The translations under genes were made by a program, and so were the position numbers. A stretch of 63,864 nt of DNA, the filler included, from Reclinomonas americana ATCC 50394 (lineage: Eukaryota), in assembly GCA_048213135.1 (NCBI GenBank). It is 7 parts of 3 records of this genome, joined end to end, with 100 filler letters (N's around TTAATTAATTAA, not from the genome) between each part and the next. Parts side by side here need not be neighbours in the genome. Positions count along the whole stretch, not along the records: positions 52,536 to 62,618 come from PS015300.1; 6 more parts are not named here. One strand, 5' to 3'. The notes under the pieces were generated by a model. It did no database searches and had not been told where the DNA came from. It was given only the letters and a program-made list of their open reading frames with translations. Shown here piece by piece: positions 27,705 through 62,718 of the stretch (its first letter is position 1; each line of letters starts with the position of its first letter).

Positions 27705-28124
27705 TGTGTACATCACGAGGTGCTCTNNNNNNNNNNNNNNNNNNNNNNNNNNNNNNNNNNNNNNNNNNNNTTAATTAATTAANNNNNNNNNNNNNNNNNN
27801 NNNNNNNNNNNNNNNNNNNNNNNNNNAGCAGAAGGGTCTCTCTCTCTCTCACACACACACACCAACGGTCGCGACAATCACAATGTGCGCTCGCAAAACC
27901 CAACGCCACAAGTGTCGCCGGTGAAACCTGGTGCCCGAAACCAGGGCTCCACACAGCAACATGAATGCGGGGCGTCGACAGCGAGACACATCCGGTGCGT
28001 CTCCGAAGGCGGCGGAAAGACATCACAAAGAGAGGAGAGGGGAAAAATGGACAACGTACATGAATTCCGAGTGGCATAGGTCGCGAAACAATCATACAGA
28101 AGACCAAGGAGAAGAGGCTCGTCA

Positions 28125-30602
28125 TCACAACCGATCGGGTTGCTGGTTGGCCATGCAGCTCTTGCACACGTTCTCGAATAGTCTCTCGATCTCAGCCGCG
28201 CAGTGGATGAACGACTTGTGCCAGAAATCGTACCGCGGGTTCTTGACCAGCTCGATAAAGGTGATGAGCAGACCCCACGGATGTGGCCGGTTCACAATCA
28301 GTCGCTCCAGCAACACTCTGCACACACATTCGTCAATAGGGAGGGGAGGGGAGGGGGAGAGAGAAAGGGAGGGAGCACGCACCGCGTAATCTGCTCCTGA
28401 ATGTACTCGTCGATTCTCTCGGCGGATCCAAACAGGTACAGCAGCACGCAGCTAAAGTAGTGCGTGTGCGAGTTCGGGTAGCGCAGCTGGTTCGCGATTC
28501 CGTTCAAGAACAGATAGCGACCTGCAAGAAAGAATACAAAGCCAGTGAGTGAGCGAGCCAGCTGATAAACACACACACTCTTGTAGAGGAGCAACCTTCA
28601 GCGTCGAGCTTCTTGCACAGCGTCTCGAAAATGGCCATCGGCGCCGAGTCGACCAACGAGTGTCCCTCAACATTCAACAGCTTAATCGCCTCAATGCCGG
28701 TGTGGTACACCAGGGCATTGATGAGCGACGTATTGTACGAGTAGCTGCCTGGTGGACGAGCGACGCCATCGCTTAGTCTCAACTTGGCCGGCAGTGTCTC
28801 CAGGAAATCGGCCGGTGTCCGGTGCTCGAGGAACTCGTTCAGCGGCTGCAAGAGGCCAGCATTCAACAGCGTGTCCTGGTGCAGTGGCAAGACGCGCGGG
28901 TGCTGTCGAATCTCGGGAAGCAGGTCCACCTACACACGAAACTTTAGTTACCACCATCTCCGTCAACCGACAACACCCAGCCACTCGATCAGTACCTTCA
29001 AGTTGGGCATGAACGGGTCGGGCAGACGCATGTGGCGCGGGAACGACGACAGGATGAGATTGCGCATCTGGATGCAGGACGGCGGAATGACGTCGCACAG
29101 CGTGAAGTGGTACTCGCACAGGAACTCGGGGAAGTCATGCAGAAGCACCAAGAGTGTGCGCAGCGTGCCGCGATACAGATGGCGAATCGGCTCGTGCAAC
29201 GACGCGGAGCGCAGGAACGGGTGCAAGAACTGGAACAGGTCCACCAGCAGCTCATGGAACAACTCCCAACCCTGCAATTCGACAGGCGATGAGAACAAAG
29301 CAATCTCTCTCTCCCCTACACAGCACAGCATGGCGACGCAACATTGTTGGCCTTGTCGAACAGCAGCTTTGGCATCAGCGTACGATGCGAGATCAACTCC
29401 AGCCACGCAAAGCTGAAGCCAGGTACTCTTGACGGGCGCAGCAAGTGCAGGTACCGGCTGTGGATCACTGATAAGCACAGACAGCAAAGAAACAATCTCG
29501 ATGAAAAAAAGATACGCACCAGAGAATGGCCAGCGTCTTGGACACCACCGGCTCGAAATCCGTGGCCTCCGCCGACAGCGTGTCGAGCAAGATGTTCACG
29601 AAGAAGCGGTAGAAGAGGCGCTGGTTGAAGACCTCGCGCGGTGAATCGTGCAGTGTTGCCAGGGTCTTGCACACGGCGTTGAGGATGACGGCGAGAATGT
29701 CAACGGACTGCGCCTGCTTCACCGTGTTGCGTAGCAACCACGTGGCCAACTGGTTCACCGCATCGACGTAGCCGAACTGCGAGCCAGTTTGATCTCTGCA
29801 ATCACCACCACCGCACCGCGTAAGGGACAAAGAAAGAAGAGAGCTTGTGTAGAAAGGAGGCNNNNNNNNNNNNNNNNNNNNNNNNNNNNNNNNNNNNNNN
29901 NNNNNNNNNNNNNNNNNNNNNNNNNNNNNNNNNNNNNNNNNNNNNNNNNNNNNNNNNNNNNNNNNNNNNNNNNNNNNNNNNNNNNNNNNNNNNNNNNNNN
30001 NNNNNNNNNNNNNNNNNNNNNNNNNNNNNNNNNNNNNNNNNNNNNNNNNNNNNNNNNNNNNNNNNNNNNNNNNNNNNNNNNNNNNNNNNNNNNNNNNNNN
30101 NNNNNNNNNNNNNNNNNNNNNNNNNNNNNNNNNNNNNNNNNNNNNNNNNNNNNNNNNNNNNNNNNNNNNNNNNNNNNNNNNNNNNNNNNNNNNNNNNNNN
30201 NNNNNNNNNNNNNNNNNNNNNNNNNNNNNNNNNNNNNNNNNNNNNNNNNNNNNNNNNNNNNNNNNNNNNNNNNNNNNNNNNNNNNNNNNNNNNNNNNNNN
30301 NNNNNNNNNNNNNNNNNNNNNNNNNNNNNNNNNNNNNNNNNNNNNNNNNNNNNNNNNNNNNNNNNNNNNNNNNNNNNNNNNNNNNNNNNNNNNNNNNNNN
30401 NNNNNNNNNNNNNNNNNNNNNNNNNNNNNNNNNNNNNNNNNNNNNNNNNNNNNNNNNNNNNNNNNNNNNNNNNNNNNNNNNNNNNNNNNNNNNNNNNNNN
30501 NNNNNNNNNNNNNNNNNNNNNNNNNNNNNNNNNNNNNNNNNNNNNNNNNNNNNNNNNNNNNNNNNNNNNNNNNNNNNNNNNNNNNNNNNNNNNNNNNNNN
30601 NN

Positions 30603-30647
<45 letters not shown>

Positions 30648-33600
30648 AACGTTAGTTACCATCATCTCCGTCAACCGACAACACCCGTCCACTCGATGCA
30701 TACCTTCAAGTTGGGCATGAACGGGTCGGGCAGACGCATGTGGCGCGGGAACGACGACAGGATGAGATTGCGCATCTGGATGCAGGACGGCGGAATGACG
30801 TCGCACAGCGTGAAGTGGTACTCGCACAGGAACTCGGGGAAGTCGTGCAGAAGCACCAAGAGTGTGCGCAGCGTGCCGCGATACAGATGGCGAATCGGCT
30901 CGTGCAACGACGCGGAGCGCAGGAACGGGTGCAAGAACTGGAACAGGTCCACCAGCAGCTCATGGAACAACTCCCAACCCTGCAATTCGACAGGCGATGA
31001 GAACAAAGCAATCTCTCTCTCCCCTACACAGCACAGCATGGCGACGCAACATTGTTGGCCTTGTCGAACAGCAGCTTTGGCATCAGCGTACGATGCGAGA
31101 TCAACTCCAGCCACGCAAAGCTGAAGCCAGGTACTCTTGACGGGCGCAGCAAGTGCAGGTACCGGCTGTGGATCACTGATAAGCACAGAGAGCAAAGGAA
31201 AAATCTCGACGAAGAGATGCGCACCAGAGAATGGCCAGCGTCTTGGACACCACCGGCTCGAAATCCGTGGCCTCCGCAGACAGCGTGTCGAGCAAGATGT
31301 TCACGAAGAAGCGGTAGAAGAGGCGCTGGTTGAAGACCTCGCGCGGTGAATCGTGCAGTGTTGCCAGGGTCTTGCACACGGCGTTGAGGATGACGGCGAG
31401 AATGTCCACGGACTGCGCCTGCTTCACCGTGTTGCGCAGCAACCACGTGGCCAACTGGTTCACCGCATCGACGTAGCCGAACTGCGAGCCAGTTTGATCT
31501 CTGCAATCACCACCACCGCACCGCGTAAGGGACAAAGAAAGAAGAAGAGTTTGTGTAGAAAGGGACGCNNNNNNNNNNNNNNNNNNNNNNNNNNNNNNNN
31601 NNNNNNNNNNNNNNNNNNNNNNNNNNNNNNNNNNNNNNNNNNNNNNNNNNNNNNNNNNNNNNNNNNNNNNNNNNNNNNNNNNNNNNNNNNNNGGCACGCA
31701 ACGGCTCCGGCAGCACCACACCCGAGATGTAAAACTCGGCACCGACACGGAACAAGATCTCCAGCGCGCTGTCGTACTTGTTGAAGAACTCGCTCTGCAG
31801 TTTGCCGACAAACGCCTTGATTTCGTCGTCAAAGTCGGCATCGGCATCCGCCGGCCGGCCACCGGCCACGCGACGATGTGCGAGGAGCATGCTCTGCAGG
31901 CGGAACCACTCCTCCAGCAGCTGGCGCACCTTGATTTGCACATCGCGCGGCACGTCAGTCTCCAGCGCACGGGAGACCTCCTCCGGCGACAGCAGCGACG
32001 GCGCCAACGGGACAATGCCCTATTTGTACAGCACAGTGAGCAAACAAAACACATAGGTACATGAAAGGGGTTAAAAACGGTCACGCAACAGACTGGCGGG
32101 GACCCAGAGCGGCGGCGCCACCAGCGCCAACGGCACTCGCCGCCGAGGACGGCAGCGGTGGTGACGTGCTCTGCGGTGGCGGTGACACGGTACCGGGTGT
32201 AAGTGCCTCCACCAGCATGATGAGCGACTCGGGCACGCCGGGCATGCGTGCGAGCTGGGCCAGGGTCTTGACCGTCTTCACAAAGTCCATTGGTTGCAGC
32301 ATGCGCGACTCGGAGAGCACATACTGCTGCAGCACCAGCACGGCATACTCGAGCACCTTGGCATTGCGCTGGGTGATGCCTTGCGCCAGGAACGTGTCGA
32401 GATCGCTCACTTGCAGCAGCTTGGCACGAAGCAAGCCATTCAGCACCTCCAAATGTCTCAGGACGTTTCTGCGCAACACACGCACATAAAAAATCGGTCA
32501 GATTCGATTGGCAACGAAGGAAGCCTCACGAGCGCAGTCGACGAAACTTCCTCATCGGCAAAGAACCACTGCGGCAGCGCCGTGTGCAGCGAGTTGCACA
32601 CAGTGCCGACACCGTGCAGCACCGCCAAAAGCACCTCCAACAGGAACTGTTCTTGCGCCTCGTACAACTGCGCACAGGTAATGTCAGCTCACTGTGCGCT
32701 GACTGAAAAAAATTGTCTCGCCCTCGTACCACCCACCTTGCTGTACACAAACTTGGCAAACGGCAGACCGACGTCGTTCTTTGACGAGGTCTGCGACAGA
32801 ATGCGCGGAATCTTCTGCAGCACCGTGCCAACGTCCTTGCGAATGGTGGGACTCTGTGACGCATTGCGACCGAGAGTAACCAGCTCGCCAAACGCCGTCT
32901 TCAGCTGCTCCAACACCTCGCCCGGCGTCAGTTCCTGCGGAATGGCGCGGAACTGATCCGGCTGCGGCTGCTGCGGCTGCGCACCGCCCAGGCGTGACGC
33001 CATGTTGACGCCGCCGGACACCGCGTACTCGTTCGGTGAGCCGAGGGAGAAGGCCGACGGCATGCCGGGCGGGACATGCGGGTGCTGGCCCATCACTGGC
33101 GACGACGAACCCACTGCCACAGCAGTACGGTGTGAGGAAACGAACGGAAGCGGTGGGGTAAAGAGANNNNNNNNNNNNNNNNNNNNNNNNNNNNNNNNNN
33201 NNNNNNNNNNNNNNNNNNNNNNNNNNNNNNNNNNNNNNNNNNNNNNNNNNNNNNNNNNNNNNNNNNNNNNNNNNNNNNNNNNNNNNNNNNNNNNNNNNNN
33301 NNNNNNNNNNNNNNNNNNNNNNNNNNNNNNNNNNNNNNNNNNNNNNNNNNNNNNNNNNNNNNNNNNNNNNNNNNNNNNNNNNNNNNNNNNNNNNNNNNNN
33401 NNNNNNNNNNNNNNNNNNNNNNNNNNNNNNNNNNNNNNNNNNNNNNNNNNNNNNNNNNNNNNNNNNNNNNNNNNNNNNNNNNNNNNNNNNNNNNNNNNNN
33501 NNNNNNNNNNNNNNNNNNNNNNNNNNNNNNNNNNNNNNNNNNNGGAAATGCGTGCGCAACTCGGCGGTGGCGGAGAGAAACGCGCAGGTCCTTGCGGAGG

Positions 33601-36084
33601 CTGCTGGACACCGTACGGATGTCCGCCACCACCGGCACCGCCAGAGGCCACGGCAGCCGCAGCCACGGCGGCCGCCACGGCCACTGACGACAGCGCAAAG
33701 TCGCCATAGACACGCTCTTGCATCGGCAGCAGCGGTGGCGGTCGCGGGCGCATGAAAGCCGGCAGCGTACCGGGGATCTTGCGAGCCTGATTCTGGTCGT
33801 AGTACGCCTGATTCATCTGCACCAACAACAGTGAGCACACTGGTGAAGAAAGAAACAAAGAGGACACAACACAGGACTCACCTCGCGGTACTTGCGTCGC
33901 TCGGCCAACTGATCCTGCAGATGTTCATCGATCTTGGCCACGGCCTTGTCGAGCACAACCTTTTCGACCAGACCCGTGCACATGTCAATGTTGTCGTTGA
34001 CCAACACCGGCAGCGTCTGCTCAATCAGCATCATCTCCCGCTGCGACACACATATTTTCGTTCAGCAACAGGACACAATCGCCCGTCTCCACACAGCTAC
34101 AAAACCTCATTGACTTGGCTTGCGAGCACTTGCTTGAGGCTGCTGGTGAGCGTGGCGCGCAAGTGGTCCTTGGAGGTGACCAGCGACAGGCTGCCAGCCA
34201 GACCCTGCACCATGCGGTGCGCCGCATCACGGACGCGCTCCGGCGACGACTCCATCGAAAAGTCCTTCATCACCAACTCGCGAGTGGTAATGCAGGCAAT
34301 CGACACAGCACGATCCGCCACAACCGTAGTGGTCTCGCGAATGGCATTCTCAAACGCCATCGCCAGCAGCCGCTTCAGATCGGGATTACCAAAGAACGGC
34401 AGCGTCGGGCTCACACTGATCATGTTGTACAGCGTCATGGCGGAGATTGCCGAGGCACCACCCACTGCGCATTCTCACACGGTGTGAGGCGCCAGTGCAA
34501 TCAACACACATAATAATAATGATGAGCAAGCACGACAAACTCACCGCCTCCGCCACCACCGCCAATCATAGGCAAGCGCTGACCGCCCATGTCGGCCGAA
34601 ATCGGCGGCACGTCCGGCGAGTACGGGTCATCGCGAGTTGGCGACGACGGGCCGCCGAGGCCGTCGCCCGACGAAGCCGAGGTGTTGAAGTCGGGGCTGG
34701 CCAGCTTGTCGACTGAGCGACCAACCAGATAGCCACGAGTCTCCACCTCGCTAATGGTGAGATTCAGCGTCTTGCAGATGAGCTCGACTTCGAACTTGAG
34801 GTTGAGCTTGAGATCCGGCAACTGGTACATCTCCACCAGGATGGCCACAATGCTCATCGTCCACGGATTCGGCACCTTGAACACGCGATTACCGGCCGCC
34901 TGGTGCAGCAGCTTGGTGACAAACGGAATCACGGAGAGCAAGCGGCCACGCTCGAGCGCGTCGATAATGATCTGCTTGAGGTCCAACTTCTTGTGCAANN
35001 NNNNNNNNNNNNNNNNNNNNNNNNNNNNNNNNNNNNNNNNNNTTAATTAATTAANNNNNNNNNNNNNNNNNNNNNNNNNNNNNNNNNNNNNNNNNNNNAA
35101 TCATGCAGGCGTAGACCTCTTGCTCACTGCAAGCACATGAGAGTGTCAGAGCCATGATACAGAGAGAAAGGCTATGAAAAATGTCGTCAATTATAACAAA
35201 CCGAGCATCACGCGAGTTCTTGAACAACTTCAGCACCTCCACTACGTCCTGCACCGACTTTTGCTTCACGTACATCTGGTGGAACCACGAGTTTGCCTCG
35301 TCCTCCACGTCCTTGGAGAAGACTTGCATCTGCACGTTGCCGGTGGAGACGAGGGCCTGTGTTGCACAACAGGAGGCGCGTGAGGAAGAGGGATACGGTG
35401 ACAGAGAGATAGGGATTTGCGTGTTGCGTACCTGCAGTTGCGGGTGGCCGCGCACCGCCGAGCCATACACCTCGCGCAACGCCTCCTCACACGGCTGTCC
35501 CAGCAGCGTGCGCTTCGACAAGACGACGCGGAAAATGGTGGCTGCCGTCTCCAAATGCTCCGACACATTCGGACGCGACTCGCCCTCCGGGTATTGCACC
35601 AGCTTGTCTTGCAGGTACTCGATGCACGCGTACACGAACTCGTCCTTGTACTCGTCGACCTTGTTGCCGATCCACATCTCGAGGTTGAGGAACTCGCGCT
35701 GCGCAGCCAGCGCTCCCAGCTCGATGGTGAAGGTGAATGGTCGTGCCTCGAGAACAAGCATCAGATCCTGCAGTGTGAAAAGTAGGGAGTCAGCAACAAC
35801 AGATGATGATCTGCAATCAAGGCGCGAGTCCACTTCTGAACCTTGCGCTCTTCCACGACCTCCAGGATGCGCGGCAGGGTGGCCGGATCCTTCTTGAAGA
35901 GGCGACTCATGCCGAGGATGAGCAAATCGCGCTTCGACGACCACATGTACTCGAGCATGGTACTCGAGCTCGGGTGCGCCATGACGAAGAGTGGAATGAG
36001 AATGTCGAGCAACTCTTGGCGCAGGTACACGGTCACATGCTGCGACAGTTCGTCAGTATCACAGTCACAAACATCGCTCCACAA

Positions 36085-36115
<31 letters not shown>

Positions 36116-37010
36116 CACAAACCTCAGACTGCGACACCGTGCCAAGCAGCGTCTCCGGGCAGTTCTTGATGGGATTCTCAAAGAGTGGAACCACTTGCGC
36201 ATACAGCGGCGTCTCCGACAGTGACAGCAGCGTGTCGACAAGATCGAGCGACGACCACGTTTGGCTGAGCACGCCACCACGCAGTTCGAAGCCGGGAATG
36301 ATCACGCGACGCGCGCATTGTGCAAAGGACACAATGTCGGGAGGCGCCACCACCGCGGCCTTCAGCAGCGACAGTTGTCCGCGAATGTTGTTCCAACGAC
36401 CAAACAGCACGTCCACGGGGAACGGTGCCTGCACACACAGACAGAGACGTACGTGTCAACAACTCGACAAACACACACAAACCGAGTGCACACAGCAAAA
36501 CGCAACATCGGCCGCCTTGCGGTAGAACGAGGAGATGATGGCCAAGCCGCGGGTGTCGGGCAGGAAGAACTCGGGGAAGTCCAGCGACTTGAGCACCCGC
36601 TTCCAGTTCAGATGCGGGCACTGGCACACACAAGGAGAGGAGAAAGAATCAGTCACCAAAACAGTGGCGCCTCTCACCCTCCCTCCTATCTCTCTCTCCC
36701 ACACACCTTTTCAGTGAGCACCGCCGTGAACACGTCGACTCGCCAGCTCGACGACAGGTACTCGCTGGCACTGGCGGCGCGAACCGAGGCCGTCAGCGAC
36801 GCCAGACCACCCAGGATGCCAGTCTCGTCGATTCCACGCAGGGTGGCCGGAGCGATACTGTCATCGCGTAGGTACGCCGGAGCCGGTGAGGGATCCTCGC
36901 CAGCCGCCGCCGCCGCCGCCGCCATTTGCACCAGAGCCTGGTTGGTGGCCGCCATCATGCCGAGGATGCGGGCGGCCGAGGCCTCGGTGAGCTGCGGGAA
37001 GTGCGAGAGA
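28125..37010 (-). CDS. CNOT1: CCR4-NOT scaffold subunit NOT1 (multi-exon, gapped, 5' end missing)
   Basis: [168 protein letters not shown]. Confidence 0.97.
28931..31568. repeat. Near-identical ~930 bp direct duplication of CNOT1 exons (28931-29861 and 30640-31568) flanking a gap
   Basis: The same exons and introns occur twice, with a few SNPs and small intronic indels. Confidence 0.9.
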
Positions 37011-39821: not shown

Positions 39822-40824
39822 ATGAGCGACGACGCAGACAGTGGCACCCTCCGACGATCGCAGCGCAAACGCACTCGCCCAAGATCTCCATCGCCACCCG
39901 CACCATCCTCCTCTGCACAAGAGAAGACGATCGACACTGCAGACGAGCCACCACTCAAACGCGCCCACACATCACCCGCCGCCATGCATCCACTCATCGG
40001 AGCACTCCGACTCTCCTTTGCCGCACGCGCCGACCCTGTGCGAGCCGCCGCCCAATCCGCGTGTTTCGTGTCTCTCTCTGTGTGTGCACGTGCACGCAGC
40101 GTGTGATTGACACACTGTGATTGCAGACATGCGCAACAAGTTTGAGTTCTTCGGCCTCTGCGCTCCCGATCGTCGCGAGTGCCAGCGGGAGCCCTTTGCA
40201 CAGCATCCACCCGCCACACTGCCAGTGTACGTGCAAGGTTGGTGTTTCCTCTCGCGCGCGCTCTCTCTCCCCTTCTCCCTCCTCTCACACAAACTAGTCA
40301 TGCGCGAGATGTGGGCGCAACCCGAACGCGACTTCCAGCAGGCCGCTCTCGACTACGGTGCCAAGTTCCAGCCGCGTCTGTGCCACTCACTGGACGACGC
40401 CACGCACCTGCTGTCGGTGTACCGTGATCTGGCGGTCGACAAGTCGTGGTGGGATACCGTGGACATGCTGGCGTCGAAGCTCATTGGTGGTGTGGTGCGC
40501 GCTCATCGCGACACCCTGCTGCCGGTCATCGACAGCAGCTGGATTGAGCCGCCCGACGGCAATCTGTGGATCCGACGCTGTGCGCTGCTGTGCCAGCTCA
40601 GCTGGAAACGCGAGATGGACTTGGAACGCGTGTGGCGCTACTGCAGGATCGCGTGCGCTGTGCCGAAACACGAACACGAGTTCTTCACGCACAAGGCGGT
40701 CGGCTGGTTGCTGCGGGAGACCGCCAAGACATTCCCCCAGCAAGTTCGCGAGTTTGTCAGAGAGGAGCGCGACCAGATGCCGGCATTGTCGTTCCGTGAG
40801 GCCACCAAGCACATAAAAGCTTGA
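39822..40824 (+). CDS. AlkD-family (HEAT-like repeat) DNA alkylation repair glycosylase, 2 introns
   Basis: Spliced AQSA|YMRNKFEFFG, MWAQPERDFQQAA, KSWWDTVD, NLWIRRCALL.QL, EFFTHKAVGWLLRE.AK, LSFREATKH; basic N-terminal extension. Confidence 0.9.
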
Positions 40825-45040: not shown

Positions 45041-45212
45041 AGAATCGCATAGNNNNNNNNNNNNNNNNNNNNNNNNNNNNNNNNNNNNNNNNNNNNTTAA
45101 TTAATTAANNNNNNNNNNNNNNNNNNNNNNNNNNNNNNNNNNNNNNNNNNNNCGGGGAAGGAATGAACATGACACTGACACTGCCAAACGAATAGGCGGT
45201 AACCTACGGGTG

Positions 45213-51580: not shown

Positions 51581-54500
51581 ATGTTTGGGAAGAAGAAGGG
51601 CTACTCGCACGAGTACACGCTCACTGTTGAGGGTGTCAGCGGTGAGGCGCATCCGCTGAAACCAAGAAAGCGTGTGTGTGTCGTCCTCATTCGCAGTTGT
51701 CGCCAGGTTTGCCGCAGTATGATGGACAACTGCTGTATGTGCAATGGAAACGCGGTGGAAAGCGCTCAGGCGAGACCAAACCGGTAAGCTTGTGTGTGTG
51801 TGTGTGTGTGTGGCAGCGAGTGGCAAGCGCAGTGTGTGCCTCAAGCGCGTGCGTTTGTCGGGAGATGTCCCATGCCCGCAGCGTGCTCTCTTTCTCCCTT
51901 GCTCTTCTCATTCTCCCTCCTCTCCACCCTTCTCTTCTCCACGCCGTCTACTGGTGCCACCGATGCTATGTGTCTTTGTGTGAGATAATAATGTGATGTA
52001 TCAGTGAGTGTGATGACCGTTTGTGTTCTGGTCTCGGTCATCGCGTGAGAAGTGGGGCATGATTGCGATTGTTTGTGTGTGAGAGTGGACACTGTGCACG
52101 AGCTGTTGTCTTGCATGCGCGACTGTGTGTGTGTGTGGGTCGGTGCATGTCTGGCGTAGAGAGTGATATATATGTGTGAGTTGTCTTGTTTGTCTGCCTG
52201 CGTTTCGTGTGTGTGTGCGCGTGTCTCTTTCACTGTGTATGTGTGTGGTGATGCGTAGCTGAGAATAGCTCTCCTTCTTCTCCTCCTCCTCTTCCTTCTC
52301 CTCGTTCTTCTGTGAGCTCATGGAGTATTATTGTTGGATTGCATCAGCAACAATGCGAGGATGGAGTGTGTCTGTTCAACCAGCGCTTCTCGTTCACCGG
52401 CACGCTCTTCCGCAAGAAGGAGAACGGCCCGTTCGNNNNNNNNNNNNNNNNNNNNNNNNNNNNNNNNNNNNNNNNNNNNTTAATTAATTAANNNNNNNNN
52501 NNNNNNNNNNNNNNNNNNNNNNNNNNNNNNNNNNNCGCCTCGTCGCAGTAATGACGGGCCGGGCGCACTCGACACACTGTATCTATCGTCGTCGACGGCA
52601 GCCGATCCCGACATCACGGGTCCCGAGTGACGATCCCGCGTGCGATTGTCGGTGCCTCCACGTGCTGGCCTGTCGTCGTAGTAATCTGGAGCGAAATAAA
52701 TGTGAGTCGCCCGGCATCACACTGCGTCGTCGACGAAGGGACATGCGCGCACCTGGTGCGTCGAATCCACTGGACGACACGTCGTCACCGTAGCGCGAAT
52801 CAATGTCCTCGGTGGCAGTGTTCACGCTGGGCGCCGTCATGGCCGAGCCTGAGCCCTCGCCGACAAAATGAGGGGCCAGTCGGATGCGCAGCTGTGCCCG
52901 CGCTCCACCACGCACGGCCAGCGTGCGCGAAATCGGCTGGGCGGCGATCTCATTGTTGTCGTGCTCCATGCAGCTGGCGGCGGTGAACTCACTCAAATCC
53001 AAAATACTCTGCCCGAGCTTGTGCCGACGCTGCTTTTGGTCTTGCGTCATGAGATTCAGCTTCAGCTCCTTCTTGTNNNNNNNNNNNNNNNNNNNNCTGG
53101 CGCAGCCGGCAGTCAGACACTGGATGTGGCAGACTCGCCCGTGGGAAGTGCGAGCCGAAGAGGCAACCGTGCGCGGTTCGCGCCGGGCGCCAGTTCCACG
53201 GCTGCGCCCGCAGCCGCGGCGGTCACCGATCCACCGGCCAGACCTAGCGCGCCTGCAGACTCGGGGAGCCGTGGCAACGGGTCGACTGGGACGGCCGTCG
53301 CTGTGGCTTCGGCGCCGGGCAAGTCGCGGACCGCCACCGCAACTGCCACCGCTGTCACTGCAGTGCGTGTTGAGGAGTAGAGGGTTGTGACGCTGTAGCA
53401 GTCGTCTCACACGAGATGTTTCGTTGATGTGCGCAGCCAGCAGCGCCAGCCCCGTCATCGACTGCCAGCACGCTGTCGGCGGATCGGCTATCGGGAGGTG
53501 CGCCATTTGGCGGCGGTGTTTCGGGCGTGCGGGCAAACTCGAGTCCGAGTGCCGACGACGACGATTCGCAAGTTGTGTGTCTCTCAGCGTGTGAGTGGGC
53601 GCGCCTCACGTGTGCCAACCATCGTGCATTCTCGTGCAGGATGACGCCGATTTTGTGGACGAGCTGGTGTACTTGCAGGCACCCGCCACAGATCATGGAA
53701 CGGTTCGTTGTTCGCGCCTGCTGGGATGCGGCTCGCTTGCGTTGTTGTGTGTTTTGTTGACGTGTGTGCGTGCATGCGTAGCCAATGGCCGGTCAGCGAA
53801 TTGTGGACGGTGTGCATGAGCGCTGTGTGTTTGCGACGTCTTCAAGGCGCGCGCTTGCGTTCCTCGATCGGCTCCTGAAGGCCATGGCACAATTCATCAA
53901 GGTGTGCTGATATTCGTCGCAGCCATGCCGTGCTTCTCTGTGACTCACTTTGGTGTCATTGTCTTGCGCAGGCGTATGATGAGTACGATCAGATTCGCTT
54001 GTTCTGGCTGGCTTCGTGTGGCTTTATCGTCGCCGAGTACGCAGTCAAGTACCCGGCGGAGCTCAGTCCGGCCACTGTTGCGTACCCCCACTCAGCGAGT
54101 GAGCACCGCAGTTGTCATTCACCACTGTTTCCCTTTCACCACGCAGGATGCTGGCTCGGCGGGAGCCGTTGGCACAGCGGCGAGCAATGGAAGGGGTGCG
54201 GGGCGTGCGAGGACTGTGGTGCCCACCGCGGCAAAAGTGCAGTCGTATTACACGGTGGCTGCGGAGGACAGCGGAGCACCTGGTCTGCGCGGACCACAGC
54301 TCGGCCACGCCGCGTGGACGGCGACTCACCACTTTAACAAGGTTTCCCGAGCGATTGCGCACTGCGCGTGTTCGGCATTCTTAACGGCGTGCTGCGTGCA
54401 GTTGTTGGAGTCGGAGAGGAGAAACGACAGCGAGTCGACGGTGCTGGAGTTGGCGTTTGCGCTTGCCGTGCAGAATATCTACGCATGGTGCTGTGCTTTG

Positions 54501-55508: not shown

Positions 55509-55715
55509 ACGCGCGGGAATAAGGAAAAAGAAGACGACGAATACAAAAAGCGTCCTATGTGTTGCTGCTCTTGCTGTCGCCGTCCTCCGCTTCTTTTCCA
55601 TCATTCTGCTGAGGAGTGGCACAGTCATCGCATGGAGGAGGGAAGCCAGGCCGTGGCTGCCGACAGTCAGCGCGCGGGGCGGGCACGATCACGCATCACT
55701 CGCCTGTTGTCTCAC

Positions 55716-57014
55716 ATGTTTCCGCGCGCCACTCTCCTCACCCGCCTGTTGCGGTCGCCACACGATGCACAGCCGAGTGCTACCAATGCACACGGTGCGC
55801 CTCTTGTCTCTCCAGCCCATGATGAATCACCGTCACTTTGCTGACTGGACCGATTGCATGCAGAGAGAGTGATGGCCAACGCGGCAGTGGAGGAGGACGA
55901 GGTGGGCGAAGGAGATGAGGAGGAGGGTCTGATCACACTCCAAAAGGCTCTGCAGCAGTCGACGGCGAGTGAGGCGACGCCGAAAGTTGTGGATCGGCGA
56001 CTCATTGGCTTCCCGCGCACCGTGGCCAACGCCACGCTCTTCTCGCGCGTCATGGAGCAGGTGTACCAGGAGGAGAAGCAAGTCATTCCCGACTCGGGTT
56101 CGTTAGTTTCATCAGTCTTCGTGCATCCCTCTTTCTCTCCTTCCACCCACGCCTGCCTCAAACCCGCAGACTTGGTGGAGATGCCCAAGGGCGAGCCTCC
56201 GTCGCTCACCGAGTTGTTTGGCGACGAGTTCCCGTCGGGTCACGTGTGCGTCGTCGGCCCCACCGGATCCGGCAAGAGTACGATCGTCCGCGGTATCCTG
56301 TGTGCGCTCTGCGACCGTCACACGCTGTCGATCTACTCGCTGGAGTTTCCCGTGGAGGTCAACCTCAACACGCACGGTCTCTTTCACGTGTGCCAGATCG
56401 ACATGTTTCAGCAAGTGGCCGGTCGGCAGCGATCGCTGCACGAGGTCGCCAACGCGCTTCTGCATCACGATCCCGACCTGCTGTACTTTGGCGAGCTGCG
56501 CAACAAGACCGACTTTGAGACGGCGACGAGTGTGGCGCTGAGTGGAGTGGCGTGCATCAGCACGGGCCATGCGCACTCGCCCATGGACCTGTTGGAGCGT
56601 TTGCGCGCGATGAACATTGACCTGTCGACGCAGTTTCGTGCCTTTCGCTGCATCGTCGGCGTGAAGCGCGTGCCCATTCTGTGCGACGTGTGCAAGCGCA
56701 CGGTGGTGTTCCAGGGTTCGCCGTCGGATAATCGCGCTCTCCGACTCTTCTTCATGTATCGCACGGTGACGTTGAGTCGGGTGCGTCGACGGCAGACGCA
56801 GCCTCGTGTGTGCATGCCGGGCACGGGCACGAACTGTTCGGCGTGCACCGGTGGCTACACGCACAATCACACCATCTACGAGTTCCTGCGCATCCACCCG
56901 ACAGACACGCTGGAGTCGCTGCGGCGCAATCACACGTACACGACGGAGGAGACGTTGCTGGACCTCATCATGCAGGGCAAGGTCAATCCACAGTATCTGG
57001 AGAGCCTGCTTTGA
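55716..57014 (+). CDS. gspE: GspE/PilB-family secretion ATPase, nuclear-encoded with a putative mitochondrial presequence (exons 55716-55794, 55864-56097, 56170-57014; ~385 aa)
   Basis: Walker A GPTGSGKST; Asp box SLEFPVE; Walker B HHDPDLLYFGELRN; His box SGVACISTGHA; LLERL; tetracysteine LCDVC...CSAC followed by GGY....IYEFL; two GT-AG introns (69 and 72 nt); N-terminus MFPRATLLTRLLRS. Confidence 0.9.
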
Positions 57015-57044
57015 GAGGTTATTAAGTTTTCCCTTCACTGCGAT

Positions 57045-59243
57045 TCATGACGGGTGTGACGTGGTGGTTCCGTTGAGTGTGCTGCTCGCGACCGCGGCTC
57101 CGCCAGCGACCGCCGCCGCCGCCGCGGCGCCTCCCTTGGTGGATGCTCGCGAACCGGGGCGTGTTGGACCGTAGCGGATTGCGCGATCAATCTCCAGCAC
57201 CCACTGGTCTCGCGTCAGCGCCGACTCGCAACTCAATTCGTACTTGCGCGTCGGTGTCTGCAGCGAGAAGCGGAATCGCGGTCCTGTTTCGCCCAGCCGT
57301 GACATGGGTCCCGACACGCGACATGCCAGCTCGCCACTGCCGCCCATGGGGATGGAACCTCGTGGCTCCGTGTCGCTCTTGTCGTGACAGTACCGCAACT
57401 CACACCGCTCGGCGTCCAGCTCGAACCAACGCCGCTGCCACACGATTCCGAGGAAGCCGCCGCGCTTGTGCACCCAGCCACGCAAGCTCTGCGGCGGTAC
57501 AATGTAGCCGCGGGAACTCGAATACACGCCGTCGCTGTAGTCGCCGCCGCCAGCGTAGCTCGATGGTGGAATGTAGTAGCTGGTTGTTGTGCTACCGTTG
57601 CTCACGGCCGCGGATCCCGTCGCGTAGCGAGTGTAGATCGGATCGCTGCTGGTGGCGTGCGGATTGACGCCAGTGGCCAGCAGCAGCGGCTCCAATTCGG
57701 CGCGTGTGGGCGACAGCAGCGGGTGAACAGCACGGAGGAGGCCCAGTGGGTTTCGACCGTGACGATTCAGGCGCTCCATCGATGCATTCGCCGTCAGCAG
57801 CAGGGTGACCGCTGTCACGTCGCCGTCGACCACCGCCTGTCCGAGTGGGGTGTTGCCGTCGACCATGCGGCACGTCTGATCGAGATCGACCAGAGGATTG
57901 CCAACAAGATGCTCCAGCAGCGACGTCATTCCCATCTCGATCGCCACACCGACCAGACTCGTGCCGTCGTGCGCGAGTGCGTTGAGGGCGGCAGCGTCGG
58001 ATTGTTGCGCCAAAAACAGCGCTGCGGCCTCGTGACCGCCCTGCGCCGCGAGCATCACCGGCGTTGCACGAGCTCCCACGGGGGCCACCAACGAAGCGTC
58101 CTCCATGGTCTTGACACGCGGCACAGTATTCGGGTTCGCACCGGCCGACACCAGCAACTCGCACACGCGCACGTTGCCGGAACGCGCCGCATGGTGCAAT
58201 GCAGTCTCGTCAAAAATGTCTGCCAAGCAGGTCAGGCTTACAGAATACAAACAAAGAGCCTCTCCCCTCCACAAACCTGTGACATGCAAGTCGCACACCT
58301 CGGCATTGCGCGAGTCCGCCAACAACTGCTGCACCATCTCCTCATCTCCACGCCGACACGCCGCCATCAGTGGCGTGACTCCGTAGCCCAGGTGGCCCAC
58401 ATTCACCGACGGCACCACCACCGAACCCACCTCCCGCTGCTCGGCGTGCAAGTCAAGCAGCACACGCGCCGTACTCGCATCGCGGACGACAAGAAGCGGG
58501 AAGCGCGTCCACCGCGTCGCCGACCACGGCTCGAAGCGACTCGACCGCTCCCGCCCAACGCCATCGACCAGCAGCAGTGGCTGCTGGCTCCCAGAGGCCG
58601 CACTCACCACCGCCGCCATGGCCTCTGCAGCCTCGGCAGCCGCCACCGCCGCCAACGCCTGCTCATCACTCTCAGCGCTGTCACCACTGGCAGCCACAGT
58701 TGTCGCAGTCGCCGCCGCCTTGCTTTGACATCGATGCACGAACGGCAGTCGACCGTCGCCCGTGAGCGCCAGCATGCGCAACTTGTCAGGCGGGCCCACA
58801 TCCTCCTCCTCCTCTTCTTCTTCCACCTCTTGTCCACCACTGTCATCATCATCATCATCATCACGACGAGGCCGCTCTCTCTCCTGTCGCGCCTTGACAT
58901 ACGCCTGCAGCAACATCTGCACCGCCTCTGCTGTGCAATCGCGTTGCGCACACAATGCAGTCACAGCCGCACGCACAAGAGACCGCGGCATGGTGACGAG
59001 GAATCTGCGCGCACACTCTCTCAGTGTAACACACACACAGAGAGACGCAAGCTGGCATATGTGTGCGCGTCGCAACTCTTGCAACTCGCGGACTTCGCCG
59101 TTTGCTGCGTCGCCGGCCTGTGCATGTGTGACGGCCGAGACGAGGGCGGCAGTGAGAGGAGTTCGCCGACTGCCCTGTGCCAGCACCGACTCGACCATGC
59201 TGTCACTGCCGTCGCCAGCAGTGGCAGAGGCCGTGTCGCCCAT
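57045..59243 (-). CDS. Ankyrin-repeat plus C-terminal PH-domain protein
   Basis: TPLMAACRRGD, ETALHHAARSGN, TPVMLAAQGGH, GNTPLGQAV; PH: GWVHKRGGFLGIVWQRRWFEL...LRY...PRGSI...FSLQTPTRKYELSCES...DQWVLEI. Confidence 0.9.
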   Translation of the reverse strand: MGDTASATAGDGSDSMVESVLAQGSRRTPLTAALVSAVTHAQAGDAANGEVRELQELRRAHICQLASLCVCVTLRECARRFLVTMPRSLVRAAVTALCAQRDCTAEAVQMLLQAYVKARQERERPRRDDDDDDDSGGQEVEEEEEEEDVGPPDKLRMLALTGDGRLPFVHRCQSKAAATATTVAASGDSAESDEQALAAVAAAEAAEAMAAVVSAASGSQQPLLLVDGVGRERSSRFEPWSATRWTRFPLLVVRDASTARVLLDLHAEQREVGSVVVPSVNVGHLGYGVTPLMAACRRGDEEMVQQLLADSRNAEVCDLHVTGLWRGEALCLYSVSLTCLADIFDETALHHAARSGNVRVCELLVSAGANPNTVPRVKTMEDASLVAPVGARATPVMLAAQGGHEAAALFLAQQSDAAALNALAHDGTSLVGVAIEMGMTSLLEHLVGNPLVDLDQTCRMVDGNTPLGQAVVDGDVTAVTLLLTANASMERLNRHGRNPLGLLRAVHPLLSPTRAELEPLLLATGVNPHATSSDPIYTRYATGSAAVSNGSTTTSYYIPPSSYAGGGDYSDGVYSSSRGYIVPPQSLRGWVHKRGGFLGIVWQRRWFELDAERCELRYCHDKSDTEPRGSIPMGGSGELACRVSGPMSRLGETGPRFRFSLQTPTRKYELSCESALTRDQWVLEIDRAIRYGPTRPGSRASTKGGAAAAAAVAGGAAVASSTLNGTTTSHPS

Positions 59244-59478
59244 GTTGTCTCTCTCTCTCTCTCTCTCACAGATAGCAGGCGCGCGCACGCCACGCACCAA
59301 CGATACACGCACTGAAATAGTTGTCCCGTGAAGTGATTTCACTCACAGAGAGAGATAGAGAGAGAGATAGAACGAGAAGAACATATAGGCAAGAGGAGAG
59401 GGATTCACACACATACACACGTACACGCGTACAGATACAGGAAAGGTGCAAGGTTTGTCGACCAGTGCCGATTGGATT

Positions 59479-62335: not shown

Positions 62336-62718
62336 TGCGCGTGCGTGAAAAACCAATCAATCAGGCGCAATGGCGGACGAAGCGCATGCCAGTGAGGAGG
62401 AGAAGAAGGAGGAGGAGGAGTATGGGAGTAAGCGGGGGAGAGAGAATGAAGGGGAAGGCGTGGTGGGAATGAAAGGAGACAGAGGAGAGGGAGAAGGAAA
62501 GGAAGCGAAGGAGAGAGCATGAAGAGGAGAGGATGGAGAGAAAGGAGAACTGTCTTTCCCCTGTGCGACTTTCTCTCTCTCCTGGACTCGCAGGCAACGC
62601 ATAGCCACTTGCTCCTCTNNNNNNNNNNNNNNNNNNNNNNNNNNNNNNNNNNNNNNNNNNNNTTAATTAATTAANNNNNNNNNNNNNNNNNNNNNNNNNN
62701 NNNNNNNNNNNNNNNNNN

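Follow-up and report, generated by a model that had tools for sequence, protein, structure and literature searches.

Components GspD, GspE, GspF and GspG of a mitochondrial type II secretion system (miT2SS) have been reported in heteroloboseans, two malawimonads and the jakobids Reclinomonas americana and Andalucia godoyi (Horváthová et al. 2021, Nat Commun 12:2947, PMC8134430), these being the two jakobids in which the system was first described. In that account the eukaryotic GspE consists of the ATPase (CTE) domain only, separate GspEN2A and GspEN2B proteins resemble the N2E domain, GspEL is an inactive paralogue, and a GspE-GspEN2A pair is proposed by the authors. Their R. americana data came from partial genome assemblies, all models were manually curated, and the supplement has R. 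americana rows for GspD, GspF, GspG, GspDL, GspDN1-3, GspEL, GspEN2A/B and Gcp proteins as well as for GspE. The GspE proteins of Naegleria gruberi (NgGspE) and Gefionella okellyi (GoGspE) localise to mitochondria in yeast, NgGspE falls in the mitochondrial proteome cluster (marked ‘M’), and GoGspE interacts with itself in a two-hybrid assay (PMC8134430). Herein we analysed a 63,864-nt stretch of DNA from R. americana ATCC 50394 (“the window”) and conclude that positions 55632-57014 are almost certainly the nuclear three-exon GspE gene of the jakobid R. americana, or of a near-identical strain, coding for the ATPase of the miT2SS. The gene product, the lineage and the system were already published in 2021 (PMC8134430); what the window adds is small, namely the exon-intron structure and the neighbours of R. 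americana GspE, together with evidence that the protein starts at MEEGSQ. The gene is laid out as follows.

55632-57014, plus strand: GspE gene, 3 exons, 1242 nt, 413 residues
55632..55794, plus strand: exon 1, 163 nt, with ATG 55632-55634 and the MEEGSQ start, placed by the conserved N-terminal motif and the published protein
55795..55863, plus strand: intron 1, 69 nt, GTGCGC...CTGAC...GCAG, GT..AG, holding the in-frame TGA 55842-55844
55864..56097, plus strand: exon 2, 234 nt, comprising an acidic linker plus the conserved block GFPRT...FSRVME, placed by alignment with homologues
56098..56169, plus strand: intron 2, 72 nt, GTTCGT...CGCAG, GT..AG, in frame and stop-free
56170..57014, plus strand: exon 3, 845 nt including the stop TGA 57012-57014, with the entire ATPase (CTE) domain

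Supplementary Data 1 of PMC8134430 contains three peptides of the protein encoded in the window, each of them a single time and always in the row ‘Reclinomonas americana, N.A., GspE’. The first 400 residues of that published sequence read the same by eye as our spliced model, including MEEGSQ and the junctions ...TNAHERVMAN... and ...VIPDSDLVEMPKG..., and the length is 413 both in the published cell and in the spliced model. We therefore regard the two as the same protein with the same start and both exon junctions, no difference having been seen, whereas the window adds two introns and the neighbouring genes, which are not in the supplement table (where no accession is given). An earlier note, made from this DNA without database searches, had proposed a nuclear gene for the GspE of a mitochondrial T2SS in one of several named eukaryotic groups, and the match to the published jakobid protein bears this out. 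Its fallback, a new lineage or an independent acquisition, falls, since the organism belongs to one of those groups, the jakobids.

A database search returned 22 eukaryotic matches (E 4e-122 to 4e-65, 49-74% identity). Among them are the A. godoyi entry ‘mitochondrial Type II secretion system E-like protein (GspE)’, the GspE of Malawimonas jakobiformis and of Acrasis kona, and Naegleria and Willaertia proteins labelled hypothetical. As the highest identity is 74%, the collection searched does not contain the protein encoded in the window itself. Below the eukaryotic matches the scores fall sharply to bacterial ones, none of them better than E 5e-13 or above 34% identity. In a maximum-likelihood tree of 40 rows (the window, 21 other eukaryotic sequences and 18 bacterial ones as outgroup; P0021, a second Andalucia gene model, was left out), the eukaryotic GspE form one clade of 22 rows on a long branch with 100/100 support, and the window lies inside it. 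The phylogeny that the earlier note had called for thus does not nest the gene in one recent bacterial clade. Within the eukaryotic clade the tree leaves the exact place of the window unsettled, near the malawimonads and a heterolobosean-rich group; Andalucia and P0020 branch outside that malawimonad/heterolobosean-rich group (84/86 and 97/99). That GspE is otherwise prokaryotic, and that the window is a patchwork of short draft-assembly contigs, might raise the suspicion of contamination by bacteria or of a recent transfer, specific to this lineage, out of one bacterial clade. Either would have to account for two spliceosomal-type introns, for a convergent ankyrin/PH gene on the same contig piece, for 59-74% identity to eukaryotic GspE set against no more than 34% to any bacterial match, and for a monophyletic eukaryotic clade on its own long, fully supported branch, and we consider both extremely improbable.

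The gene read as R. americana GspE shares its CTE-only architecture and an N-terminal nonapeptide with the GspE of Andalucia godoyi (P0016), Malawimonas jakobiformis (P0009), Gefionella okellyi (P0008), Naegleria, Willaertia and Acrasis. It has 63-66% identity with them over the ATPase domain and joins them in the one 100/100 clade, while differing in a linker between nonapeptide and ATPase domain that cannot be aligned and in a Met at nonapeptide position 9. Five environmental or run-assembly proteins (P0017, P0019, P0020, P0001 and P0022) sit on their own branches inside the same clade, P0017 and P0019 paired at 100/98 and P0020 sister to all others; judged from these sequences, the eukaryotic GspE clade may be distributed more widely than the named species suggest.

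The exon structure was derived by aligning three candidate models of the gene with the 22 eukaryotic homologues. A single plus-strand open frame runs from 55845 to 57014 (389 codons), and the frames 55509-55841 and 55845-57011 are in the same register, the sole interruption being the TGA at 55842-55844. Both introns predicted in the earlier note hold, on different lines of evidence. Left unspliced, intron 2 would add a 24-residue insert (GSLVSSVF...LKPA) that is present in 0 of the 19 homologues spanning that stretch and is also missing from the published protein, whereas splicing joins VIPDS to DLVEMPKG without a gap (compare VRPES-DLVEMPKG in P0001). Intron 1 removes the only in-frame stop and has a CTGAC branch-like site 18-22 nt upstream of its 3' end. 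It is 1 of 15 in-frame GT..AG pairs able to excise the TGA, and as the linker around it is unconserved, comparison alone is unable to fix its junction; only the choice 55795-55863 yields the published protein, with an identical junction (...NAH/E/RVMAN).

The start codon is where our model departs from the earlier note, which had begun the protein at ATG 55716 with a mitochondrial-type presequence opening MFPRATLL. That Met is residue 29 of our model and the final codon of a conserved nonapeptide, so MFPRATLL is internal, at the tail of an N-terminal tag. An ATG inside a conserved N-terminal motif means that the coding sequence must start farther upstream, and the comparison places translation initiation at ATG 55632 (MEEGSQ), 84 nt upstream of 55716. 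This leaves 20 residues ahead of the motif, within the 8-45 seen in homologues. Translation from 55716, with the N-terminal MFPRATLLTRLLRS as a classical matrix-targeting presequence, draws on the 16 residues that follow, which are rich in Arg, Leu and Thr and free of acidic residues, and an internal or alternative start is conceivable. It would, however, sever R-[LIV]-x2-[LI]-x2-[HQ]-[LIVM] after residue 8 of a nonapeptide found in 16/16 full-length eukaryotic GspE, the reading frame is already open at 55509 and offers an ATG at 55632, and the curated published protein begins MEEGSQ; we hold this alternative to be very unlikely. The in-frame ATG at 55557 was also considered as a start and judged unlikely, lying just 49 nt past the stop of the upstream gene.

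The GspE/PilB-type ATPase core that had been recognised at the locus was confirmed by profile and structure comparisons. Pfam PF00437 (T2SSE) matches the open reading frame (ORF) translation with E 4.4e-23 (82 bits) and exon 3 with E 1.8e-23, the two scores being 82-83 bits where the gathering cut-off is 24.9, and the top NCBIfam rows are GspE (NF007755, 72.7 bits), ComGA, GspE (TIGR02533) and PilB. The catalytic and structural motifs lie in exon 3.

56256..56279, plus strand: Walker A GPTGSGKS (aa 162-169), invariant in 17/17 aligned sequences
56340..56360, plus strand: Asp-box equivalent LEFPVEV (aa 190-196), aligned to EDPIE of EpsE
56469..56501, plus strand: Walker B DPDLLYFGELR (aa 233-243), aligned to EpsE
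56559..56573, plus strand: His box STGHA (aa 263-267), aligned to EpsE
56682..56693, plus strand: first CxxC, CDVC (aa 304-307), of the tetracysteine module
56835..56846, plus strand: second CxxC, CSAC (aa 355-358), of the tetracysteine module

The four cysteines C304, C307, C355 and C358 are invariant in the 17/17 aligned sequences and align to both CxxC pairs of EpsE. This tetracysteine CxxC...CxxC module is not known from PilT and generally separates extension from retraction ATPases. Searched as a single sequence against solved structures, the protein matches chains of PilT, GspE and PilB (E 1.7e-13 to 1e-10); a profile built from the 17-sequence alignment of the eukaryotic clade finds as its best solved relatives Vibrio vulnificus GspE (4pht_A, E 9.6e-19) and Vibrio cholerae GspE (1p9r_A, E 3e-18). 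Exon 3 modelled with AlphaFold (280 residues, pLDDT 84.9, pTM 0.82) gave Foldseek matches to PilF (5oiu_C, 1.1e-19) and EpsE (1p9r, 4.8e-17), within a range of 1e-19 to 1e-16 and TMq 0.64-0.74 for PilF, PilB and EpsE together, and matches of just ~1e-11 to 1e-10 to the retraction ATPases PilT and PilU. In the predicted model the fold is therefore closer to the extension than to the retraction ATPases, and a PilT-type reading was rejected. Compared with bacterial GspE (Vibrio EpsE/GspE; PDB 1P9R, 4PHT, 4KSR) and PilB/PilF (5TSH, 5OIU), the R. americana protein has the same fold and aligned Walker A and B motifs, His box and CxxC pairs; it differs in its ~20-22% identity, in lacking N1E/N2E and the Asp of the Asp box, and in being encoded in the nucleus with introns.

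Ahead of Walker A stand 161 residues (not the ~130 first estimated), without a counterpart of bacterial N1E/N2E. The Pfam search found no match to T2SSE_N (PF05157) in the window's GspE, as expected from the proposal that the bacterial N-terminal domains are absent, whereas most bacterial relatives carry PF05157. The protein therefore has the CTE-only architecture of eukaryotic GspE.

Several observations weigh against reading the locus as a working miT2SS GspE of R. americana with the structure given above, and they concern its identity, its model, its activity and its destination. The identity check consists of three exact peptides and a by-eye reading of the first 400 of the 413 published residues, and the tree does not join the window with Andalucia, the second jakobid, as sisters, the node concerned having a weak 84/86. 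For the introns and the start the evidence is comparative, together with the published model; since that study used partial genome assemblies and curated models, the latter is perhaps itself a prediction from genomic DNA and not independent transcript evidence. The NCBIfam scores are far under the equivalog cut-offs of 300-675 bits (72.7 against 617 for NF007755 and 57.5 against 630 for TIGR02533), and on its sequence R. americana GspE is a derived, truncated form and not a bacterial GspE equivalog. The list of motifs in the earlier note stood for Walker A, Walker B, the His box and the CxxC pairs and not for the Asp box, which is degenerate (Asp replaced by Phe, both Glu retained).

The degenerate Asp box would fit a locus that codes for the inactive paralogue GspEL in place of a catalytic GspE, a GspE-like paralogue with abrogated motifs having been described (PMC8134430). 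Yet the Walker A, Walker B and His-box motifs are all intact, the same change at the Asp box (E-[FYS]-P-V-E) is common to other eukaryotic GspE orthologues, and the R. americana GspEL row of the published supplement differs in sequence, so that we attach virtually no probability to the GspEL reading. For R. americana GspE as identified here, we infer catalytic competence from the motifs.

Targeting predictors are split. The published MEEGSQ protein is scored as mitochondrial by TargetP 1.1 (mTP 0.784; M, reliability class 4), MitoFates (‘yes’, 0.586) and WoLF PSORT (mito 12), and not by TargetP 2.0 (OTHER) or MitoProt (0.12), in the published scores (PMC8134430). The suggestion that a start at MEEGSQ would make the protein cytosolic is thus at odds with three of these programs, and mitochondrial import of R. 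americana GspE is plausible as a prediction, if not a firm one.

If the protein behaves as its family and the published system imply, it would act as an oligomeric motor at the inner membrane, on the side facing the matrix, and use ATP to power the building of the GspG pseudopilus on the GspF platform. The missing N2E domain would be supplied by the separate GspEN2A polypeptide, as the authors of PMC8134430 propose.

The motif that decided the start codon occurs well beyond this gene, and it is described here as a tag with a likeness to the peroxisomal targeting signal type 2 (PTS2).

55692..55718, plus strand: nonapeptide RITRLLSHM (aa 21-29), followed by FPR; PTS2-like tag, conserved in 16/16 full-length eukaryotic GspE

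The counterparts RVYRLLSHI (Andalucia) and RIQRLLSHL (Malawimonas) align with SRITRLLSHM of the window. Counting as full-length those eukaryotic GspE that start with Met and whose Walker A lies past residue 90 (six further short or fragmentary rows were left uncounted), the relaxed pattern R-[LVIMAQ]-x2-[LVIMFHQ]-x2-[HQ]-[LAFIVM] was found within the first 80 residues, at positions 9-46, in 16/16 sequences. Shuffling the same N-termini 1000 times gave a mean of 0.4/16 and a maximum of 4; as the rows are orthologues, this test gauges conservation and not independent origin. The relaxed pattern occurs in 1 of 98 bacterial matches. PTS2 itself is defined as [RK]-[LVI]-x5-[HQ]-[LAF] in the first 40 residues with a hydrophobic position 5, and RIx5HM is a probable functional PTS2 variant in an oomycete thiolase (PMC7710942). 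The strict PTS2 pattern fits 7/16 eukaryotic GspE, and the window's GspE fails it through the Met at position 9. Set beside PTS2, the window's RITRLLSHM (residues 21-29) is alike in Arg1, Ile2, a hydrophobic position 5 and His8; it differs in Met9 and in continuing into -F-P-R, and the orthologues tested in PMC8134430 were mitochondrial.

A census of the tag was made by eye in Supplementary Data 1 of PMC8134430 (parts 1-6 and 8-10), in which negatives are less safe than positives. The relaxed tag was present in 8/8 rows of GspE (4 of them fitting strict PTS2), 8/8 of GspF (2 strict), 15/16 of GspG (8 strict), 9/10 of GspEL (6 strict; the remaining row has Thr at position 2), 10/10 of GspEN2A (5 strict) and 8/10 of GspEN2B (6 strict). 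Over the six families this amounts to 58/62 rows with the relaxed tag and 31/62 with the strict pattern. The R. americana tags are RITRLLSHM-FPR (GspE), RVRALLQHV-FPR (GspF), RVRVLLSHV (GspEL), RVRVLLSHI (GspEN2A) and RVRRLLQHL (GspEN2B). The sole GspG exception is the R. americana protein, whose published 5' end may be incomplete or mis-modelled. The tag was not seen by eye in the inspected rows of GspD, GspDL, GspDN1, GspDN3, Gcp1, Gcp2, Gcp5, Gcp7, Gcp8, Gcp10 and Gcp11, and for Gcp6 it was seen in 2/9 rows, both from Naegleria. Present on GspE, GspEL, GspEN2A, GspEN2B, GspF and GspG and unseen in the outer-membrane parts, the tag marks the expected inner-membrane and matrix side of the system.

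Three WD40 proteins, Gcp1-3, whose closest relative is the PTS2 receptor Pex7, occur strictly together with the miT2SS (PMC8134430). One possible reading, tentative and in our judgement rather unlikely, is that the tag is a PTS2-type signal of the inner-membrane/matrix-side miT2SS proteins that would be read by the Pex7-like Gcp1-3. We find it somewhat probable, by a small measure, that the tag is instead part of a mitochondrial presequence, ordinary or specific to this system, or a helix for docking between proteins, its likeness to PTS2 being coincidental. The strict pattern fits only 7/16 GspE and excludes the window's own, the motif runs past PTS2 (-x-P-[RNK]), F-P-R-[VIL] turns up in Gcp9 and Gcp12 with the Arg/His part missing, several tagged proteins have predicted presequences, and GspE, GspEN2A and GspG are reported as mitochondrial and not peroxisomal (PMC8134430). 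Ordinary presequences, on the other hand, are not residue-conserved across jakobids, malawimonads, heteroloboseans and hemimastigotes, the conservation spans six families, GspF and GspG being unrelated to the four GspE-derived ones, and three Pex7 paralogues co-occur strictly with the miT2SS.

The half-motif F-P-R-[VIL] without the Arg...His part stands near the N-terminus in Gcp9 (for example IMFPRV, FFFPRV) and internally in most rows of Gcp12 (LFPRVL), and the corresponding F-P-R element of the window's GspE (MFPRA) is at 55716-55727. In GspDN2, read by eye, 12/13 rows carry [KR]-L-x5-H-F (for example RLVAFLRHF in R. americana), a strict PTS2 fit that lies inside a Secretin_N-like domain, and 10/13 rows have a positive score from a predictor of the type 1 signal (PTS1), with C-termini such as SRL, ANL and PRL. 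These features of GspDN2 are a second hint of peroxisome-type signals in the miT2SS.

The main text of PMC8134430 uses ‘PTS2’ once, to explain Pex7, and has neither of the phrases ‘N-terminal motif’ and ‘conserved N-terminal’; its supplementary PDFs (Fig. 4 alignments) may mark the motif. A 2023 review (PMC10128026) contains neither ‘PTS2’ nor ‘Pex7’. A literature search joining PTS2 and GspE gave just PMC8134430, its preprint and an unrelated PEX1/PEX6 review, and a search from 2021 on linking Pex7 with mitochondrial type II secretion in Naegleria gave only PMC8134430. If the PTS2-type reading were true, a peroxisomal receptor-signal pair would have been co-opted for the delivery or assembly of a bacterial secretion motor in mitochondria. 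A PTS2-like tag shared by six miT2SS families would give a testable receptor-cargo hypothesis, and a sequence pattern with which to screen genomes for more components or cargo. The tag is a lead for specialists and not a result.

The GspE gene lies on the contig piece 52536-62618 of a window that is a chain of contigs and not one contiguous sequence, as judged from six identical 100-base spacers of the form N44-TTAATTAATTAA-N44, in which TTAATTAATTAA gives a stop in all six frames (ordinary N gaps occur besides). The spacers and two of the genes in the window are located as follows.

9250-9349, 27727-27826, 34999-35098, 45053-45152, 52436-52535 and 62619-62718: spacers
57045-59342, minus strand: ankyrin and PH-domain gene, convergent with GspE on the same contig piece
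13324-14724, minus strand: RNA polymerase I A49 ORF, its N-terminal half low-complexity

The locus sits among eukaryotic genes, as the earlier note had it: besides the ankyrin/PH gene, the window holds CNOT1, RNA polymerase I A49 and PMI. Between the GspE stop and that of the ankyrin/PH gene are 30 nt (57015-57044), so the 3' untranslated regions of the two genes overlap or are very short. On the minus strand, CNOT1 keeps its domain order across the spacer at 34999-35098, with HEAT (35764-36123), CAF1-binding (34504-34998), DUF3819, connector and Not1 in succession, and the pieces on either side are therefore true neighbours in genomic order. The idea that each contig piece bears its own Gsp or Gcp gene was accordingly dropped, CNOT1 spanning a spacer and the pieces being ordinary neighbouring contigs. 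In agreement with the absence of other recognisable Gsp genes noted at the outset, a Pfam scan of 74 ORFs in the window found, GspE apart, no secretin, T2SSF, pseudopilin, WD40 or other Gsp-type domain.

Two near-identical copies of a CNOT1 exon, at 28966-29595 and 30674-31300 (both minus strand), flank an N run at 29862-30602 and match the same Not1 profile positions 63-156 (E 6.2e-41 and 5.7e-41); the pair looks like an assembly duplication and not like two genes. At 40111-40821 (plus strand) lies an ORF with a Pfam match to a family of DNA alkylation repair enzymes (DNA_alkylation, PF08713, E 5.5e-40).

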